Assembly (NCBI GenBank): GCA_963745235.1
Contig: CAVUXE010000009.1
Span: 160,001 to 224,000, forward strand
From: an uncultured Spirochaetota bacterium
Lineage (GTDB): Bacteria; Spirochaetota; Spirochaetia; SZUA-6; Fen-1364
DNA: 64,000 bases
Direction: 5' to 3'
The translations under genes and the position numbers were made by a program. The notes under the pieces were generated by a model. It did not search any database and was not told the origin of the DNA. It saw only the letters and a list, made by a program, of their open reading frames with translations. Each line of letters starts with the position of its first letter. Positions within the stretch are counted from its first letter, which is position 1. This document shows positions 1,672 to 50,865 of this stretch, piece by piece.

Positions 1672-2877
1672 ATGAGAAACATCTTCAAACTGATCCTGCT
1701 GGTGGCGGCCATGGCCGTGGCTTCGACCGCCTTCGCGCAGGGGGCGCCCCCGGCCGCGGGTGACAGCCTGACCGTCGGCCTGCTCATGGTCGGTCCGTAC
1801 AACGACCACGGCTGGAGCCAGGCCAACTACGACGCCATGCAGTACGTCGTGAGCAAGGTCCCGGGCGTGCAGATGATCTACCTGGACAAGGTGAACCCGG
1901 CGGACCGCCCGGGAACCACCGCATCCCAGCTTGCCGAGAGCCTTGTCGCAAAAGGCGCGAAGCTGGTCATCTTCAGCTCGGACGACATGAGCGATGAAGC
2001 GGTGAAGTTCGCGCAGGCCCACCCCGACATCTTCGTGATCATGACCTCGGGCAGCCAGGTCTGGAAGGACGGCAAGGACTACAAGGACCTGCCCAACATG
2101 GTGAACATCATGGGGCGCATGGAGTACACCAAGATGATCGCCGGTGTCGCCGCCGCTCTCACCACGAAGACCGGTCAGATCGGCTACCTGGGTCCGCTCA
2201 TCAACGACGAGACCCGCCGCCTGGCCTCCTCCGTGTACCTTGGCGCGCGCTACGCGTGGGTGAACTATCTGAAGAAGGACCCCGCGAAGCTGAAGTTCAA
2301 GGTCACCTGGATCGGGTTCTGGTTCAACATCCCGGGCGTGACCTCCGACCCCACGCAGGTCGCTGATGACTTCTTCAACAGCGGCTACGACGTCGTCATC
2401 TCGGGCATCGACACCACGGAAGCCACCACGGAAGCCGTCAAGCTGGCAGGGCAAGGCAAGAAGGTATGGGCCATCCCGTATGACTATGCGGATGCGATCA
2501 AGGAAGGCCCGACGGTCGCCCTCGGCGTGCCGTATTTCAACTGGGGCCCCGCGTACGCAAAGACCATCAAGACCGCCATGGACGGCACGTGGACGTCTCA
2601 CTTCGAATGGAACGGCCCGGACTGGAAGAACATCAACAACCCGGACACTTCGGCGGTCGGGTTCAACAAGGGCGCCGCTCTCTCCAGGTTCGCTTCGAAC
2701 GGAGTGGACAAGTTCATCAAGCAGCTTGCCGGCGGACTGAACCTCTGGAAGGGCCCCCTCACCCTCCAGGACGGGACCGCCTATCTCAGCGCAGGCGAGG
2801 TTCCCACCGATCAGCAGATCTGGTACCTGCCCCAGCTTCTCATGGGCATGGAAGGCCAGAGCGTTTCCAAGAAGTAA
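1672..2877 (+). CDS. BMP-family ABC transporter substrate-binding protein (purine/nucleoside type)
   Basis: Signal peptide, GPYNDHGWSQA and WIGFWFN motifs; GGAGGAG RBS; followed by an ATPase and two permeases. Confidence 0.88.
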   Translation: MRNIFKLILLVAAMAVASTAFAQGAPPAAGDSLTVGLLMVGPYNDHGWSQANYDAMQYVVSKVPGVQMIYLDKVNPADRPGTTASQLAESLVAKGAKLVIFSSDDMSDEAVKFAQAHPDIFVIMTSGSQVWKDGKDYKDLPNMVNIMGRMEYTKMIAGVAAALTTKTGQIGYLGPLINDETRRLASSVYLGARYAWVNYLKKDPAKLKFKVTWIGFWFNIPGVTSDPTQVADDFFNSGYDVVISGIDTTEATTEAVKLAGQGKKVWAIPYDYADAIKEGPTVALGVPYFNWGPAYAKTIKTAMDGTWTSHFEWNGPDWKNINNPDTSAVGFNKGAALSRFASNGVDKFIKQLAGGLNLWKGPLTLQDGTAYLSAGEVPTDQQIWYLPQLLMGMEGQSVSKK

Positions 2878-43753: not shown

Positions 43754-45073
43754 ATGAAACAATACAGAATTGCGATGCCCGCGGCGTTGTGCGTCTTTGC
43801 GCTTGCCGGCGCAAACCTCCTGTGGTCCCAGGCCGGGCCGGTTGCTGAGTCACAGCCCCCCGCGCCTCTGCTTGCCACTCCGTGGTATCAGACGCGAGTC
43901 ATGGGAGACCGCATCCTTGACCAGGTCCTTCTCTTCTACCTGGCAGAGGTCTGGCAGGGAAGCTCGGACGTCGGTGAGGTCCTGGATACCGCAAGCAGGA
44001 TCCGTTCGGAGGATGAATACAGCTGGACACGGGAATGGCAAAAGACCGCGGAAAGGCTCAGGCTGCTGGCCAGCACCAGCGAGCAGGCCGGCCACTCCTT
44101 CAGCGCAGGGCAGGCCTATCTCAGGGCGGCCACCTATTACCGCGCCTCGCTGCACAGGTATCCAACGCCCTCGGACCCGGCAGTCCGGGAGATGAGCGCG
44201 CTGGAGGCGGCATGCTTCACAAAGGCCCTCCGTCTGCTTCGGATCCCGGCGCAGCCCGTGAGGATTCCCTACGAGGGAACGACGCTTCCCGGGTACTTCT
44301 TTCGCTCCCCGGGTGCCGCAAAGAGGGCACCGGTGGTGATCGTGCACCAGGGGCGGGACGCATGGGCGGAAGACTGCCTGTATATCGCCCAGGAGGCGAT
44401 GCGCCGCGGCTACCATGCTCTGCTCTTCGACGGCCCGGGCATGGGACAGACCCTCAGGCTGCAGGGGCTCGCCTTCCGTCCTGACTGGGAGAAGGTCATA
44501 ACGCCCGTGGTGGACTTCGTGATCAGGGCTCCCGGCGTGGACCCCCGGCGGATCGCGTTGATGGGGCTCAGCATGGGCGGCGCTCTGGCTCCCCGGGCCG
44601 CGGCTTTCGAGAAGCGCCTGAAGCTCCTGATCTGCGATCCAGGAGTATACGAGTGGTCGCGCATCTACACGGATTTCCTCTCGCACGGAAACCCGGAGCT
44701 TGCCGAGATGCCGCGCAAGGACCCGGGGCGCTTCAACGCCCTGATCGAGCAGGCCGCCCGGGCGGATCCCGTCATCAGGTGGGGCATGGTGGACAGCATG
44801 TGGAAACACGGCGCGCGGAGTCCCGCGGAACTCCTCATCGCCATGGAGCAATACACGAACAAGGGCTTCGCGGAAAAGATCACCGCCCGGACGCTCGTGG
44901 TCGACGGCGAGGAGGAAGAGTTCGGCCAGGCCCGGGAGCTCTTTGATGCTTTGCGCTGTCCAAAGGACTACCTCCTTTTCACCCGGGAAGAGACGGCTCC
45001 CCTTCACGTGCAGGTCGGCGCTCTTGCGGTCTCCAGCCAGCGCATTTTCGACTGGATTGACGACTCCATCTGA
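43754..45073 (+). CDS. Secreted alpha/beta hydrolase (FrsA/DUF1100-like)
   Basis: IPYEGTTLPGYF, FDGPG-G, GLSMGG nucleophile elbow and C-terminal His. Confidence 0.88.
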   Translation: MKQYRIAMPAALCVFALAGANLLWSQAGPVAESQPPAPLLATPWYQTRVMGDRILDQVLLFYLAEVWQGSSDVGEVLDTASRIRSEDEYSWTREWQKTAERLRLLASTSEQAGHSFSAGQAYLRAATYYRASLHRYPTPSDPAVREMSALEAACFTKALRLLRIPAQPVRIPYEGTTLPGYFFRSPGAAKRAPVVIVHQGRDAWAEDCLYIAQEAMRRGYHALLFDGPGMGQTLRLQGLAFRPDWEKVITPVVDFVIRAPGVDPRRIALMGLSMGGALAPRAAAFEKRLKLLICDPGVYEWSRIYTDFLSHGNPELAEMPRKDPGRFNALIEQAARADPVIRWGMVDSMWKHGARSPAELLIAMEQYTNKGFAEKITARTLVVDGEEEEFGQARELFDALRCPKDYLLFTREETAPLHVQVGALAVSSQRIFDWIDDSI

Positions 45074-45126
45074 AGGGGCACCGCGAATCATGGCGTGCCG
45101 GGGAATGCAGGGTCCGAGGCTGGGTA

Positions 45127-45155
45127 TTGACAGATTTCAATCGTGAGTTTATTCT
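45127..45155 (+). promoter_or_regulatory. Sigma70-type promoter of the hyd maturation operon
   Basis: TTGACA-N17-TATTCT in an AT-rich patch. Confidence 0.75.
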
Positions 45156-45161
45156 CGATTC

Positions 45162-45246
45162 ATACCTGCGGTAAGGAGCTTCTCTGAAGCCAAGGGTCGC
45201 TGAATCAAAGCGCCTGCCTGTCCTCATCGCGGACGGGCTTTTTTTT
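45162..45246 (+). ncRNA. Candidate structured 5' leader (riboswitch/attenuator) or sRNA
   Basis: Lies between the promoter and the first gene; two hairpins closed by GCGG/CUGC, then an intrinsic terminator. Confidence 0.5.
45216..45246 (+). terminator. Intrinsic terminator inside the operon leader
   Basis: GCCTGTCC-TCATCGC-GGACGGGC stem (one G-U pair) followed by 8 T. Confidence 0.85.
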
Positions 45247-45324
45247 GGCGCGCCGCCTGAAAAGCCGCTTCCGCGCAGCACGACCTTCCGACCCTCCCTT
45301 ACCCGCCAGCAAGGAGACCATGCC

Positions 45325-45576
45325 ATGGAACAGAGAGCGGTCGGAGTCGTTGCGGTCATCGTGAAACAAAGGGCCACGGGAGCGCCGGAAGTGAACGAGG
45401 TGCTCACGCAGTTCGGAGACATCATCCTGGGGAGAATGGGCCTGCCCTACGCCGCGCGGGACCTGAACATCATCACGCTGATCGTGGATGCCACAACGGA
45501 CCAGATCGGTTCCCTCACGGGGAAGCTGGGAATGATCAGGGACGTCACGGTCAAGTCCACCCTGGCGCGGATCTGA
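45325..45576 (+). CDS. TM1266-family iron-only hydrogenase system putative regulator (ACT-like)
   Basis: VNEVL...ILGRMGLPY...LTGKLG...VKS; first gene before hydG. Confidence 0.85.
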   Translation: MEQRAVGVVAVIVKQRATGAPEVNEVLTQFGDIILGRMGLPYAARDLNIITLIVDATTDQIGSLTGKLGMIRDVTVKSTLARI

Positions 45577-45587
45577 GGGAGAGAGAC

Positions 45588-47093
45588 ATGCAGCACATGA
45601 CAACCCTGGAGCGGCGCTGGAAAGACAGCGTGATCAAGACTGATCAGATCAGCAGGTACCTTCATGATGGAAGGGATTTCATCGACGATGCTCTCATCGA
45701 GACGCTCCTTGTGCGCGGACGAGACCCTGACCCCGCGTTGGTCCGTGGCACCATCGCGAAGGCCCTTTCCATCGAGACACTCCTCCCCGAGGAGACCTCT
45801 GCCCTCCTGAACGTGACGGACCCCGGTCTGTGGGAGGAGATCTTCGATGCAGCCGCACGGGTCAAGAACGCCGTCTATGACAACAGGGTGGTGACCTTCG
45901 CCCCGCTGTACTGCGCCAACCGGTGCGTCAACCGCTGCGTGTACTGCGGCTTTCGGGCGGACAACGGCGCGGTGCAGCGCCGGGTCCTGTCCTTCGAGGA
46001 AATAGAGCGCGAAGCGCGGGTCCTTGCCGGGGAGCTGGGTCACAAGCGGATCGTTGCGGTCTACGGCGAGCATCCTTCCACGGGCGCCGACTATATTGCG
46101 GAAAGCATCCGGCGCATCTACTCGGTGAAGGTCCCCGTCCGCAAGGGTCGCGGTGAAATCCGCCGGGTGAACATCAACGCGGCCCCCCTGTCGATCGAAG
46201 ACCTCGTGACGATCCAGGAGGCCGGCATCGGGACCTACCAGGTCTTCCAGGAGACCTATCATCACGAGACATACCGGGGCGTGCACCCGGCGGGGACCGT
46301 GAAAGGCGACTTCGGGTGGAGGCTGTACGCGCTGCATCGGGCCATGGAGGCCGGTATTGATGACGTTGCGATCGGCGCCCTCTTCGGCCTGTACGACTGG
46401 AAGTTCGAGGTCATGGGCATGCTGTTCCACGCCCGGGACCTGGAAGGGCGCTTCGGAATAGGCCCTCACACGGTTTCCGTGCCCCGCATCGAGCCCGCCG
46501 TGAACACGGGCTTCGGCTGGCTGACTCACAAGGTCACGGACACGGATTTCAAGAGGTTGATTGCCGTTCTTCGCCTCAGCATCCCCTACGCGGGCCTCAT
46601 CGTCACGTGCCGTGAAAGCCCCGAGCTGCTGCGGGACGTGATCCCCATGTGCACGCAGCGTGACGCCTCCAGCCGTATTGGCATCGGCGCATACAGCGAC
46701 GAAGGGGGGGACCAGCAGGAGAGAAAACAGCAGTTTCTCCTCGGGGACACGCGGTCCCTGGACGAGGTCATTCGGGAGCTGGCTTCCCTGGGCTACATCA
46801 CCTCATTCTGCACGGCAGGTTATCGCTGCGGCCGGACCGGCAAGAACATCATGAACCTCCTGCGCACGGGGAAGGAGGGGTGCTTCTGCAAGCTGAACGC
46901 TGTCCTCACGTTCCAGGAATGGCTTGAGGATTTTGCGTCACCCGAAACACGGCGCATCGGAGAGGCGATCATCCAGAAGGAGATGGAGGAGATCAAGGCG
47001 AGGGAGCCCGTGGATTTCACTCCCGCAATCGTTCGCACGCTTACGGACTACCACGGCCGCATCAAGTCCGGTGAGCGGGACCTCTGCTTCTGA
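45588..47093 (+). CDS. hydG: [FeFe]-hydrogenase maturase HydG (radical SAM)
   Basis: FAPLY...CVNRCVYC, FQETYH, GPHTVSVPR and C-terminal CX5CX19C. Confidence 0.95.
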   Translation: MQHMTTLERRWKDSVIKTDQISRYLHDGRDFIDDALIETLLVRGRDPDPALVRGTIAKALSIETLLPEETSALLNVTDPGLWEEIFDAAARVKNAVYDNRVVTFAPLYCANRCVNRCVYCGFRADNGAVQRRVLSFEEIEREARVLAGELGHKRIVAVYGEHPSTGADYIAESIRRIYSVKVPVRKGRGEIRRVNINAAPLSIEDLVTIQEAGIGTYQVFQETYHHETYRGVHPAGTVKGDFGWRLYALHRAMEAGIDDVAIGALFGLYDWKFEVMGMLFHARDLEGRFGIGPHTVSVPRIEPAVNTGFGWLTHKVTDTDFKRLIAVLRLSIPYAGLIVTCRESPELLRDVIPMCTQRDASSRIGIGAYSDEGGDQQERKQQFLLGDTRSLDEVIRELASLGYITSFCTAGYRCGRTGKNIMNLLRTGKEGCFCKLNAVLTFQEWLEDFASPETRRIGEAIIQKEMEEIKAREPVDFTPAIVRTLTDYHGRIKSGERDLCF

Positions 47094-47108: not shown

Positions 47109-48506
47109 ATGGACCATCGAACAGAAAAGGACCTCCTGGGAAACGTTCAAGTCCCCGCGCCGGCATACTGGGGCGCCCATACAGAGAGGGCCCGGGCAAA
47201 CTTCCCCTTTACCGGCTACCGCGTGCATCCCGACATGCTGCGGGCGTATGCGCTCGTGAAGAAAGCGTGCTGCCTCGCCAACGTGGAGCTGGGCCTCATG
47301 GCCGCAGAAAAGGGCGCGGCTGTCATCCAGGCATGTGAGGAGATTGCAGCCGGAGGGTTCGCTGACCAGTTTCCCGTCGACGCCTTGCAGGGCGGAGCGG
47401 GCACCTCGACGAACATGAACGTGAACGAGGTGATTGCCAACAGGGCAATCGAGATCCTCGGCGGAGCGCGGGGAGAGTACTCGCGCGTGCATCCCATCGA
47501 GGACGTCAATCTCAACCAGTCCACCAACGACACCTACCCCACGGCCCTCAAGGTGAGCGCAATCACGGGCCTGCGCAGGCTCAGCGAAGCCATCGCCGGC
47601 CTGCAGGGCGCGTTCCAGGAAAAAGAAAGGCAGTTTGCGGCCATCGTGACCATCGGCAGGACCGAGCTCCAGGAAGCAGTCCCCATCACCCTGGGGGCCG
47701 AGTTCTCGGGCTTCGCCGAGGCGGTGAGCCGCGACAGGTGGAGGACCTTCAAGTGCGAAGAGCGCCTGCGCGTGGTCAACATCGGCGGCACTGCCGTGGG
47801 CACCGGCATCAGCGCGCCCCGAAGCTACATCTTCCTCGTGATCGAGCGCCTGCGGGATGTCACGGGCATGGGGCTTGCCCGGGGGGAGAACCTCCTTGAC
47901 CAGACCGCCAACGCGGACTGCTTTGTCGAGGTCTCGGGGATCCTCAAGGCGCATGCGGCCAGCCTGGTGAAGATCTGCAGCGACCTGCGCCTCCTGAGTC
48001 TCCTGGGGGAGGTGCGGGTGCCCGGCGCGCAGGCAGGCTCTTCCATCATGCCGGGGAAGGTGAACCCCGTCCTGCTGGAAGCCGGCATCCAGGCCGGAAT
48101 GAAGGTCATGGCCAACGATGCGCTGATTGCGGACGCCTGCTCACGCGGCAGTCTTCAGATCAACGAGTTCCTGCCCCTGGTCAGCTTCGCCCTGCACGAG
48201 TCCCTGGACCTCCTGGCCCGGGTTGACGTCCGGCTGGCCGCGCACATCCGGGGATTCGAGGCGGATGAAACGCGCTGCCGCGCGTTTTTCGAAAGGAGCC
48301 CCATGATCATCACTGCCCTTCTTCCGCACATCGGTTACGACAAGGCCACGGAGCTGGTTCAGCAGTTCGCAGCATCCGCAGAGGAAAACGTAGTGGCGTT
48401 CCTCCGCGGGAAGCTGGGAGATGATCTGGTAGCGTCCGTATTCAGCGCGCGGAACCTGGTCGCGCTGGGGTACAAGGACACTGAGATCAAGGGCGGCACG
48501 GCATGA
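47109..48506 (+). CDS. aspA: Aspartate ammonia-lyase
   Basis: QGGAGTSTNMN, QSTND-YPT and GSSIMPGKVNP. Confidence 0.9.
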   Translation: MDHRTEKDLLGNVQVPAPAYWGAHTERARANFPFTGYRVHPDMLRAYALVKKACCLANVELGLMAAEKGAAVIQACEEIAAGGFADQFPVDALQGGAGTSTNMNVNEVIANRAIEILGGARGEYSRVHPIEDVNLNQSTNDTYPTALKVSAITGLRRLSEAIAGLQGAFQEKERQFAAIVTIGRTELQEAVPITLGAEFSGFAEAVSRDRWRTFKCEERLRVVNIGGTAVGTGISAPRSYIFLVIERLRDVTGMGLARGENLLDQTANADCFVEVSGILKAHAASLVKICSDLRLLSLLGEVRVPGAQAGSSIMPGKVNPVLLEAGIQAGMKVMANDALIADACSRGSLQINEFLPLVSFALHESLDLLARVDVRLAAHIRGFEADETRCRAFFERSPMIITALLPHIGYDKATELVQQFAASAEENVVAFLRGKLGDDLVASVFSARNLVALGYKDTEIKGGTA

Positions 48507-49795
48507 CGCAGGCGCCCAAATCTCTTCGGCTGCACATTGGCCTCTTCGGCAGGACCAATGTCGGCAAGTCCAGCTTCCTGAACATGATTGCGGGCCAGGA
48601 CGTTGCCATCGTCTCCCCCCTGCCGGGCACCACGACGGATGTCGTGGAAAAACCGATGGAGCTTCTGCCCCTTGGGCCCGTCGTCTTCCTCGACACGGCC
48701 GGGATGGACGACTCCTCGCAGCTTGCCGCGCTTCGCGTCGCGCGCGCCAGGAAGATCTTCGACCGCGCGGACGTGGTCCTGCTTATCCTGGAGCCGGGCA
48801 CCTGGACAAGCTACGAGGAGGACATCCTTTCCCAGGCTGAGGCCCGGAAAGCCCCCGTGATCTTCGTCATCAACAAGACCGACATTCGCGACCCCTCCCC
48901 GGAGTTTCTCGAAATGCTCCAGGGAAGATCTCCCCGGGTGGTTGCGTGCTCCAGCATCCGCGCGGCAGGACGGGAGGCGTGCCTCATCCAGCTCAAGCAG
49001 TACCTCCTTGATGTCTGCCCGGAGGAGTTCCTGGCACCGCCGCCCCTGATCGGGGACCTTCTTTCCGCGGGAAAGGGAGTGGGTCTGGCCGTGCTCGTTG
49101 TCCCCATCGACCTGCAGGCTCCGCGCGGGCGCCTCATCCTGCCCCAGGTCCAGACCATCCGCGACACCCTGGACTGTGACGCGGCTGTGGCGGTGGTGAA
49201 GGAGCGGGAGTACGCCGCGTTCCTGCAGCAGCTGCGCGCGCCGCCTGACATCGCCGTCTGCGATTCCCAGGTGGTCCTCAAGATGACGGGAGATACTCCC
49301 CGCGAGGTGCCGTGCACGACGTTTTCCATTCTCTTTGCCCGCAACAAGGGAGACCTCGTGGAGCTGGCGCGCGGCGCCGCGGTCCTCACTGACATCAGGC
49401 CTGAGGACCGCATCCTCATTTCGGAGGCGTGCAGCCACCATGCCATCGAGGACGACATCGGCCGGGTGAAGATCCCCCGGTGGCTGCGCCAGTACGTCGG
49501 GGCGGACGTGCACATCGACACGTGCGCGGGAAGGGACTACCCGGACAACCTGTCGCAGTACCGGCTGGTCATCCACTGCGGCGGGTGCATGCTCACCCGC
49601 AGGGAGATGCTCTCCCGCATCGCAAGGGCCCGGCAGGCGGGGGTGGCCATCACGAACTATGGCGTGGCAATATCCGTCCTTCAGGGCGTGATCGAACGGA
49701 CCCTTTCTCCTTTCCCCGCGGCGCTGGATGCATTCACGCGGGAAAAGCGCCGCCTGGAGGGCAGGGCGCAGCCCGCCCTGGCGCGAGAGAGATGA
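48503..49795 (+). CDS. hydF: [FeFe]-hydrogenase maturation GTPase HydF
   Basis: GRTNVGKS, DTAG, NKTD, EACSHH and HCGGC. Confidence 0.96.
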   Translation: MTQAPKSLRLHIGLFGRTNVGKSSFLNMIAGQDVAIVSPLPGTTTDVVEKPMELLPLGPVVFLDTAGMDDSSQLAALRVARARKIFDRADVVLLILEPGTWTSYEEDILSQAEARKAPVIFVINKTDIRDPSPEFLEMLQGRSPRVVACSSIRAAGREACLIQLKQYLLDVCPEEFLAPPPLIGDLLSAGKGVGLAVLVVPIDLQAPRGRLILPQVQTIRDTLDCDAAVAVVKEREYAAFLQQLRAPPDIAVCDSQVVLKMTGDTPREVPCTTFSILFARNKGDLVELARGAAVLTDIRPEDRILISEACSHHAIEDDIGRVKIPRWLRQYVGADVHIDTCAGRDYPDNLSQYRLVIHCGGCMLTRREMLSRIARARQAGVAITNYGVAISVLQGVIERTLSPFPAALDAFTREKRRLEGRAQPALARER

Positions 49796-50865
49796 GCGTG
49801 CAGACAGTGAAGGAGACCCTGGCGCGAGTGGCGGCCGCGCCGAGCCCTGATGTCGAAGACCTCAGGTACCTCCTCGCCCGGGAGGCCGATGCGGAGGTTC
49901 AGCCGATACTGGATGCCGCTGACAGGACCAGGCGGCAGTTCATGGGAAACGGAATCCTCCTCCGCGGAATTGTCGAGTTTTCAAGCTTCTGCCGCAACAC
50001 CTGCTTCTACTGCGGCCTTCACGCGGGAAACACGCGCATCACACGGTACAGGATGAGCGCGGAGGAGGTCCTCGAAAGCGTTCGAAGAATCTCATCCCAG
50101 GGAGTTCAGACGGTGGTCCTTCAGTCCGGGGAGGATGACGGCCTGGACCCCGCGTGGCTCGCGCAGGTTGTGCGGGACGTGAAGAAGCGTTTTGGCATTG
50201 CCGTGACGCTTTCCGTCGGAGAGCGGCCGCGGGAAGACTATGCGCTGTGGCGGGAGGCCGGCGCTGACAGATACCTCCTGAAGATCGAGTCGTCTGACAC
50301 GGACTTGTATGAATCCCTGCACGCGGGACGCAGGCTCGAGACAAGGCTTCGCTGCATCTTCGACCTCACGACGCTCGGTTACCAGGTCGGCTGCGGCATC
50401 ATGGTTGGGCTCCCCGGCCAGAGCCTGCGGCACATCGCGGGGGACATCCTTTTTTTTGCCGAAAGGCGGTTCGACATGATCGGCATTGGGCCGTTCATTC
50501 CTCACCCTGAAACGAAGCTGCGCGGCCTGCCGCCGGGCAGCGTCCCGCTGACACTGAGGACAGTCGCCCTCACGAGGATCGTCACGAAGGCTGCCCACCT
50601 CCCGGCCACAACGGCCCTGGGGAGCATGGGCCGCGACTATCGCCTGGATGGCCTCAGGGCAGGCGCGAATGTCCTGATGCCGAACTTCACTCCCGTGGAA
50701 TACAAGACGCTCTACGAGATCTATCCCGGCAAGAGGTGCGTGAGCGAGCCGACGGGCGCGTGCGCCCTGTGCATGGAGGGGCTTGCCGAGGGCATTGGCC
50801 GGATAATCGACTATTCCCGCGGGGATTCCCTGGTAACGCAAACCGTCACGCCAGAGCGCCCATAG
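49792..50865 (+). CDS. hydE: [FeFe]-hydrogenase maturase HydE (radical SAM)
   Basis: RGIVEFS-CRNTCFYCG, GIGPFIPHP, GANVLMPN and YEIYPGK. Confidence 0.95.
   Translation: MSVQTVKETLARVAAAPSPDVEDLRYLLAREADAEVQPILDAADRTRRQFMGNGILLRGIVEFSSFCRNTCFYCGLHAGNTRITRYRMSAEEVLESVRRISSQGVQTVVLQSGEDDGLDPAWLAQVVRDVKKRFGIAVTLSVGERPREDYALWREAGADRYLLKIESSDTDLYESLHAGRRLETRLRCIFDLTTLGYQVGCGIMVGLPGQSLRHIAGDILFFAERRFDMIGIGPFIPHPETKLRGLPPGSVPLTLRTVALTRIVTKAAHLPATTALGSMGRDYRLDGLRAGANVLMPNFTPVEYKTLYEIYPGKRCVSEPTGACALCMEGLAEGIGRIIDYSRGDSLVTQTVTPERP

Follow-up and report, generated by a model that had tools for sequence, protein, structure and literature searches.

A putative cis-regulatory RNA family, in no Rfam family, preceding [FeFe]-hydrogenase maturation operons

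Background

The pbuE (ydhL) leader of Bacillus subtilis is an ON-type transcriptional adenine riboswitch, in which an aptamer of about 70 nt, a three-way junction placed right after the transcription start, shares its 3' part with an intrinsic terminator, so that the folded aptamer blocks termination. In the leaders governed by PyrR (pyr leader), BglG-SacY (RAT) and HutP, a terminator likewise faces a competing structure, and a small regulator gene comes first and is followed by the genes of the pathway. Here we describe a leader whose proposed design resembles the former and whose gene layout resembles the latter. It stands before the operon TM1266-hydG-aspA-hydF-hydE, which includes the [FeFe]-hydrogenase maturation genes, in a stretch of 64,000 nucleotides from an uncultured Spirochaetota bacterium (assembly GCA_963745235.1, contig CAVUXE010000009.1, forward-strand positions 160,001 to 224,000), referred to below as the window and numbered from its first nucleotide. 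A first-pass annotation, made from the letters of the window, had proposed that positions 45127 to 45324 hold an unassigned cis-acting RNA switch.

The regulation of HydE/HydF/HydG maturation is essentially undescribed. Rex boxes in Clostridia are the only control of a maturation operon that we found in the literature searched (PMC8457756); in Clostridium thermocellum, the targets of Rex, which senses NADH/NAD+, include hydG and a TM1266-like gene (PMC8457756). In a 2024 survey of hyd operons, the words "regulator" and "riboswitch" are absent (PMC11736057). Our literature search returned no description of an RNA before TM1266/hyd genes; the supplements of riboswitch-discovery papers, in which lists of motifs are found, lie outside its coverage and might hold one.

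Results

Occurrence of the leader and its association with TM1266 and the hyd genes

The leader was compared with the 4227 models of Rfam 15 (including the SAM, SAH, TPP, cobalamin, Moco, ZTP, c-di-GMP/AMP, purine, NiCo and Mn riboswitches) at gathering thresholds. No match was obtained in the 64-kb window, nor in 10 diverse loci of the family described below (93 kb total), and in E-value mode the leader gave chance-level scores only, the best being anti-hemB (14.7 bits against a threshold of 49.5; E = 0.74). The first-pass annotation had noted by eye that signature sequences of several known aptamers are missing from the leader.

A BLAST search over 40 related genomes, 20 of them in the same genus (g1), recovered the leader in 12 of the 20 g1 genomes at 78-91% identity. 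The matches run over query positions 8 to 126, from the -35 box to the U-run, with unconserved flanks, so that conservation in the genus starts exactly at the -35 box (query position 8 is window position 45127). The 33 nt past the predicted start (~45162, 3 nt 5' of helix P1) are nearly invariant in the genus, while the 45198-45212 hairpin and the terminator stem vary with compensation. Outside g1, the same search gave only one 27-nt match of chance level, in another family. The leader is single-copy in its source genome (G000; 5.8 Mb, 104 contigs), where no second copy of the motif was found.

Further copies were obtained by scanning metagenomes with a pattern that fixes the 13 + 7 letters of two purine-rich boxes (20 in all) and leaves 11-17 letters free between them. 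The scan yielded 75 loci, 8 of which were judged by eye to be chance matches in coding sequence, the others sharing further features that the pattern does not constrain. A covariance model (R1; 68 positions, 15 pairs), built from an alignment of 52 copies (A2), gave 91 matches in 99 sources and left all 8 suspect coding-like loci unmatched. The RNA is carried by 77 loci among L047-L131, whose GC content ranges from 29 to 68%, and clustering of the distinct copies at about 80% identity gives 17 clusters.

In 66 of the 68 loci having at least 350 nt of downstream sequence, the first gene, lying within 300 nt, encodes a TM1266 homologue. These homologues are 41-98% identical, and at least 4 gene orders follow the RNA, including TM1266-hydG-aspA-hydF-hydE, TM1266-hydG-hydE-hydF and TM1266-aspA-hydF-hydG-hydE. 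Two loci depart from the TM1266-first arrangement: in L103, hydG directly follows the RNA and no TM1266 gene is present in 5.9 kb, and in L048 the operon is deleted. Accordingly, the RNA lies, as riboswitches do, in cis before one coherent gene set (TM1266, then hydG/E/F) in diverse organisms. The first-pass annotation had looked to homologous leaders for conserved UAAGGA and CAAGGGU segments and covarying stems: the UAAGGA and CAAGGG boxes are conserved and the stems covary across the 17 clusters and the whole of the GC range. We conclude that the leader in the window (45165-45246) is a copy of a widespread, uncatalogued RNA family found before [FeFe]-hydrogenase maturation operons, and is not specific to its genus.

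Within the order, a search of 92 genomes with R1 gave 11 matching genomes, all of them in g1. The TM1266 family model TIGR03959 was detected in 12 genomes of the order; ten belong to the genus and all ten carry the RNA, the other two (G483 and G039) belonging to another family. No R1 match was found in 151 genomes from the class, or in 151 from the phylum, of G492, a genome reached through the chance match L049. A 22-mer of the motif, allowed up to 3 mismatches, matched 4 times in 400 other Spirochaetota genomes, each time with all 3 mismatches; the reversed control also matched 4 times, so these matches are chance.

Several copies in the genus are decayed. In G016 (L008) and G001 (L009/L015/L048), the promoter and 5' leader are fused to a 3' hydE remnant, and in G014 (L012) P3 and the terminator are lost and TM1266 is truncated. 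Among the metagenome loci, L131 (60-250) has the 5' half of the RNA fused into the middle of the TM1266 frame (residues about 24-82), either by deletion or as an assembly chimera. Many AT-rich loci (L075, L079, L088, L098, L106, L112, L113, L116, L119 and L123-L125) share a conserved block of ~35 nt (GCATTATAAGGC.AGGCCGATTTACG.AAAATAA) about 15-60 nt 5' of the RNA, which could be a gene end, a terminator or another element.

Conserved fold of the leader

The features of the locus are listed in Table 1. Read from the alignment, the conserved fold would be a three-way junction within the first ~69 nt, other than the one drawn before.

Table 1. Coordinates of the leader, its predicted structural parts and the operon, in window numbering
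Feature	Position	Strand	Remarks
Sigma-70-type promoter	45127-45155	+	TTGACA (45127-32), 17-nt spacer, TATTCT (45150-55); 10/12 consensus matches
P1, 5' strand	45165-45171	+	CCUGCGG; pairs with 45227-45233
J1/2	45172-45174	+	UAA; with the next GG, gives the first AAGG box (45173-45176)
P2 hairpin	45175-45185	+	GGAG-CUU-CUCU; pairs G45175-U45185, G45176-C45184, A45177-U45183, G45178-C45182
J2/3	45186-45191	+	GAAGCC (family consensus GAANCC)
P3, 5' strand	45192-45197	+	AAGGGU box; holds the second AAGG box (45192-95)
Lineage-specific hairpin in P3 loop	45198-45212	+	CGCU-GAAUCAA-AGCG; GUUUG-CACAGU-CAAAC in L011/L056; missing in AT-rich lineages
P3, 3' strand(s)	45216-45224	+	GCCUGUCCU; bases of the terminator 5' arm
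Intrinsic terminator	45216-45246	+	GCCUGUCC / GGACGGGC; 8-bp stem 45216-45238, 7-nt loop, U8 45239-45246
P1, 3' strand	45227-45233	+	UCGCGGA
Leader spacer	45247-45324	+	not conserved; ribosome-binding site AAGGAG 45311-45316, ATG 45325
TM1266-family protein	45325-45576	+	83 aa; TIGR03959 103.4 bits (cut-off 60.8); PF21699
hydG	45588-47093	+	score above NCBIfam cut-off
Aspartate ammonia-lyase (aspA)	47109-48506	+	score above NCBIfam cut-off; sits between hydG and hydF
hydF	48503-49795	+	score above NCBIfam cut-off
hydE	about 49792-50865	+	score above NCBIfam cut-off

On A2, a MAFFT alignment that was not fitted to any structural model, P1 columns 2-6 are paired in 52/52 rows and column 7 in 47/52, and its 3' side changes only between C and U opposite G, or between A and G opposite U. 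From the same alignment, RNAalifold recovers P1 and a P3 unaided. In the genus set, which the search pattern does not constrain, the variant L007 has CUGAGG as its 5' strand and CCGAGG as its 3' strand, so that a tandem G-A mismatch would result. J1/2 reads UAA in 63 of the 64 parsed distinct copies; for the metagenome copies, the search pattern prescribes these letters. P2 takes the family-wide form GGAN-loop-N'UCU, with a variable loop of 3-8 nt. Its closing pair N-N' is canonical in 61 of the 64 copies (GC 47, AU 6, UA 4, GU 4, GA 2, AA 1), and A-U or U-A closing pairs occur in 9 of the 17 sequence clusters, two within otherwise G-C clusters. In P3, GGG is paired with CCY in 98.5% of A2 cells, and the next pair, N40-N'67, covaries (GU 16, UG 12, AU 8, UA 7). 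Thus, a conserved aptamer-like structure is seen in comparative base-pairing, many of its positions being fixed by the search pattern; its junction letters are invariant and its peripheral loops variable.

The exact register of the junction can be read in two ways, as there are two identical AAGG boxes (45173-76 and 45192-95), and a CCUU/UCCU box just 5' of the P1 3' strand is able to pair with AAGG. In model A, J1/2 UAA and J2/3 GAANCC connect the helices of a three-way junction, and the AAGGGU box pairs with UCCU at 45221-24; RNAalifold pairs it through GGGU with GCCU at 45216-19. In model B, P1 is lengthened by AAGG/CCUU. When the partners are slid along A2, only 37-59% of cells are paired, against 92-93% for the models. 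L066 and L103 favour a single contiguous AAGGGC/GCCCUU helix. The register given in Table 1, with these J1/2 and J2/3, is one of the two candidate readings of the alignment.

The proposal that the compact leader forms a three-way junction is supported by the alignment, though its helices were drawn partly wrong. The two stretches taken for linkers, UAAGGA and CAAGGGU, turned out to be the most conserved letters of the family. The partner assigned to P1, CUGC at 45214-17, is not kept (A2 rows read ACAC, ACGC or CCAC there), the conserved partner being 45227-45233. The hairpin GCUUC-UCU-GAAGC, drawn as P2, is confined to the spirochaete lineage and is destroyed in L107 and L013/L092, where GGAN/N'UCU persists through compensatory G-C to A-U change; it is consequently a lineage-specific alternative and not the family helix. 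Likewise, the former P3 (CGCU...AGCG, 45198-45212) is a hairpin restricted to certain lineages, and it sits within the loop of the family P3.

J2/3 shows some complementarity to the bases 3' of the G-run (mean best helix 3.31 bp vs 2.68 in the control), and this pairing could, tentatively, give an alternative hairpin that permits the terminator to form. At 45186-45188 and equivalent positions, the triplets from the last U of UCU vary as UGA-, UAA- and UAG-like, never UGG. We dropped their interpretation as a stop codon, as there is no upstream start codon; the pattern is probably chance or a purine preference. A leader peptide starting at a CUG after the Shine-Dalgarno-like AAGGAG was rejected as well, since no frame or start is conserved and the frame is broken or shifted in 7/10 relatives.

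Overlap of the fold with an intrinsic terminator

The terminator with its U8 tract, which the first-pass annotation had placed at 45216-45246, was found as described. Its scan result does not exceed shuffles (1 terminator-like site found, 1.5 expected), and the reality of the terminator therefore rests on conservation. Of 71 distinct copies, 8 could not be parsed and were left out; in the 63 evaluated by our own criterion, a hairpin plus T-run, it was detected in 53, and in 53/53 its 5' arm begins inside the aptamer. Among the ten others, 4 have the stem with an interrupted or farther T-run, and 6, of the spirochaete lineage or rearranged, have lost the terminator.

In the window, the 3' strand(s) of P3 (45216-24) coincide with the 5' arm of the terminator, and the 3' strand of P1 (45227-33) covers the final 4 bases of the loop and the initial 3 of the terminator 3' arm. 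Since these strands are terminator nucleotides, the junction and the terminator could not coexist, and we regard them as very likely to be mutually exclusive. An expression platform of this kind, with a terminator exclusive with the aptamer, is that of a transcriptional riboswitch. The terminator conformers have calculated energies of -19.8 and -23.0 kcal/mol, compared with -11.4 kcal/mol for the junction conformer, and the unconstrained minimum free energy structure of the window RNA (-30.1 kcal/mol) includes the terminator; termination is accordingly taken as the default. For a nascent RNA ending at 45233, the predicted fold contains P1.

Promoter, transcripts and operon

The promoter named in the first-pass annotation is present, and is the single promoter-like site found by consensus scan in 44000-46500 (0.3 expected). 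An alpha/beta-hydrolase-like open reading frame (ORF) lies upstream and ends at 45073. Downstream, the leader-to-TM1266 spacer measures 60-230 nt among genus members and is unalignable.

Parts of the window are represented in two metatranscriptome runs from a single study. One contig from these RNA libraries, X1 (214 nt, 0 differences), runs over 45182-45395 and so takes in leader, terminator and the beginning of the TM1266 ORF, and a second spans 45237-45429; contigs cover neither 45100-45181 nor the sequence beyond 45430. The bridging of the terminator by X1 fits read-through from the leader promoter. The first-pass annotation had named a second promoter past 45246 among the findings that would undo its proposal. 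The consensus scan shows no promoter-like site between 45246 and 45325, the spacer is unconserved, and one contig bridges leader, terminator and ORF.

As had been described, the five genes of the operon and their ribosome-binding site lie 3' of the terminator, and all five score above the NCBIfam cut-offs. AspA encoded in a hyd operon is the proposed source of ammonium for the dithiomethylamine bridge (PMC11736057), and the place of aspA between hydG and hydF fits this published proposal.

An imperfect palindrome (ATCGTGA-N6-TCTCGAT; 45140-45159; 0.06 expected by chance) overlaps the -10 box. It is retained in most genus copies, has Rex-like GTGA..TCAC half-sites, and the source genome encodes a Rex-type gene (contig C48). 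Judged from these letters, it may be a DNA operator, which would add a second, DNA-level control of the operon outside the RNA. A Rex-type regulon built on this palindrome was rejected, as merely 2 strict sites are present genome-wide. In another spirochaete family, the RNA-less TM1266 operon L149 (genome G039, about 1735-1860, minus strand) carries TTGTTAAATATTTAACAA in its promoter region, which fits exactly the Rex consensus given for Clostridiaceae in PMC8457756. Its promoter is followed, before the ribosome-binding site, by two tandem 18-nt repeats (TGACTGAnGCGGAGGTC). Together with the Rex targets reported in PMC8457756, this match suggests that the redox state (NADH/NAD+) is one signal for the TM1266 operon elsewhere. 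Given the Rex-like half-sites at the promoter in the window, one might speculate that the RNA reports a different signal, iron or a metabolite of the pathway for example.

Discussion

Overall, the proposal of an unassigned cis-acting RNA switch before the hyd maturation operon has held up, given the lack of an Rfam match, the conserved boxes, the covarying stems and the lack of a second promoter in the consensus scan, and we consider with high confidence that the leader belongs to a cis-regulatory RNA family. It would be a new family, in no Rfam family, of a known kind of system, the cis-acting RNA switch.

In the mechanism that we propose, transcription would start near 45162 and the first ~69 nt would fold as a junction of P1, P2 and P3, the last formed on the CAAGGG box. 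By default, the terminator conformer would win and transcription would end at 45246. An effector holding the junction while the polymerase passes would lead to read-through into TM1266-hydG-aspA-hydF-hydE. The conserved fold would then be an effector-stabilised antiterminator, and we lean towards such an ON switch. As to the effector, we tentatively propose that the RNA itself binds a small molecule or ion; the leader would then be an orphan riboswitch. This proposal draws on the compact invariant core with its variable loops, on L103, which has the RNA and lacks TM1266, and on the fact that TM1266 has no known RNA-binding fold.

Several observations weigh against such a switch. Taken alone, the window leader folds no better than shuffles (91 nt; z = -0.99; 29/200 shuffles as stable), and with the terminator scan being equally unremarkable, the single sequence could not carry the claim. 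In the alignment, most base pairs are invariant and two-sided covariation is limited to 2-3 pairs; since the search pattern prescribed the P1 5' strand, UAAGGA and CCAAGGG, the invariance of the metagenome copies is partly ascertainment. The register is ambiguous, models A and B scoring alike (92.4% and 92.9% of cells paired), and L057 and L062 carry GGUUU in place of CCUU, pairing with J2/3. The terminator or the P1 3' strand is missing in some genus members (L074, L080, L013). R1 has no match in 71 other genomes of the order outside g1, nor in 150 further genomes of a phylum sample, and even with filters off no motif was found upstream of TM1266 in G483 and G039. The RNA contigs show no ends, and could come from DNA carry-over. 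Finally, the near-constant first position of TM1266 (66/68) fits a protein-RNA pair equally well.

This last point leads to the strongest of the alternatives, in which binding of TM1266 to the leader, with or without a ligand on the ACT/NikR-C-like domain of the protein, would determine whether junction or terminator prevails, so that TM1266 autoregulates the operon. TM1266 directly follows the RNA in nearly all loci despite the varying order of the later genes, and the succession of leader terminator, small "regulator" gene and structural genes is the PyrR/BglG layout. The two identical AAGG boxes, about 20 nt apart in the RNA, would suit a protein, as would the conserved basic residues of TM1266 (R37 invariant; R16, K67 and K77 in at least 90% of rows) and, by manual count, the net basic character of the TM1266 proteins of AT-rich lineages. 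The structure of TM1266 was solved in 2006. The window protein matches PDB 2nzc with E = 1e-10, and its model (pLDDT 93.5) has as best fold matches after 2nzc the NikR C-terminal domains and ACT domains, so that its fold is that of small-ligand sensor domains. These nearest folds act through oligomerisation or ligand binding; TM1266 has no known RNA-binding domain, and none of its listed fold matches is an RNA-binding relative. L103, with the RNA and no TM1266, and G483 and G039, with TM1266 and no RNA, also speak against this alternative, and as TM1266 is the first gene in the RNA-less G483 and G039 too, its position may merely reflect operon architecture. Taking both sides together, we consider regulation by TM1266 possible but doubtful. 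A NikR-type metal site in TM1266 is unlikely, since it has no conserved His or Cys.

It is unlikely that the leader responds to some other RNA-binding protein, for example CsrA on GGA boxes, or that it is a non-sensing attenuator responding to pausing, NTP levels or temperature. CsrA is encoded in the source genome (85.6 bits) and UAAGGAG resembles a CsrA site of the familiar consensus; yet there is only one AAGGA box, the second box being AAGGG and not GGA, and the boxes sit in helices or junctions rather than in hairpin loops. Moreover, the RNA occurs solely before hyd maturation operons and once per genome, unlike the targets of a global regulator.

Still less probable is an independent small RNA (sRNA), or a terminator that merely serves the upstream hydrolase gene, a separate promoter further downstream then driving the operon. 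The conserved block has the promoter and the terminator as its exact limits, and a terminated product of ~85 nt would exist in any case. For a stand-alone sRNA one would expect conservation independent of the downstream gene and no read-through, whereas the RNA always lies directly 5' of TM1266/hyd genes on the same strand, in all 17 clusters, and an RNA-library contig, as a weak indication, bridges the terminator. The scan found no promoter-like site in the unconserved 45246-45325 interval, and the terminator sits 3' of its own promoter, 143 nt past the hydrolase stop codon. Conservation at the DNA level, as a transcription-factor operator 3' of the start site, is the most improbable of all: GCTTC-TCT-GAAGC is indeed a DNA palindrome, and another overlaps the -10 box, but L107 and L092 have lost the former and retain the RNA pair through compensatory change, the wobble substitutions (C/U opposite G, A/G opposite U) on one strand only are an RNA and not a DNA signature, and the coupling to the terminator is conserved.

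Returning to a cis-acting RNA switch, whether an orphan riboswitch for a pathway-specific or iron/redox signal or the RNA partner of a TM1266 antiterminator, it would probably be the first RNA sensor devoted to metallocofactor active-site assembly, here that of the H-cluster. It would add a class of orphan riboswitch or attenuator with a sharply defined regulon, a situation in which identification of the ligand is usually tractable, and the small size of the RNA (about 65-70 nt) suits it to biochemical and structural work. It would also suggest a function for the TM1266 family; if TM1266 is the effector, it would be a new kind of RNA-binding antiterminator. Finally, such a leader would provide those who engineer hydrogenase expression with a natural control element, and would give a direct handle on the cellular decision to build an [FeFe]-hydrogenase.

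Among the described systems, the Rex control of C. thermocellum (PMC8457756) places the same type of operon under dedicated regulation, but Rex is a DNA-binding NADH/NAD+ repressor and not an RNA, and tells only which signal is used in other lineages. The HMP-PP (thiS motif) riboswitch (PMC6478431) is, like the hyd leader, a small aptamer sharing nucleotides with an intrinsic terminator, while its fold, sequence and gene context differ and the Rfam models are unmatched. From the PyrR, BglG-SacY and HutP systems, the hyd leader differs in being a multi-helix junction instead of a single hairpin or triplet repeat, and TM1266 has neither the PRTase, the CAT-PRD nor the HutP RNA-binding fold. With pbuE it shares no similarity of sequence or model, the Rfam purine family being unmatched; its variable P2 and P3 loops imply that it has no conserved loop-loop contact, unlike pbuE, and its ON logic is a likely reading rather than an established property. 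By analogy, the pbuE ON riboswitch would nevertheless be the closest design to the hyd leader, and the PyrR/BglG-type attenuators the closest gene layout, the regulon being unusually sharp.

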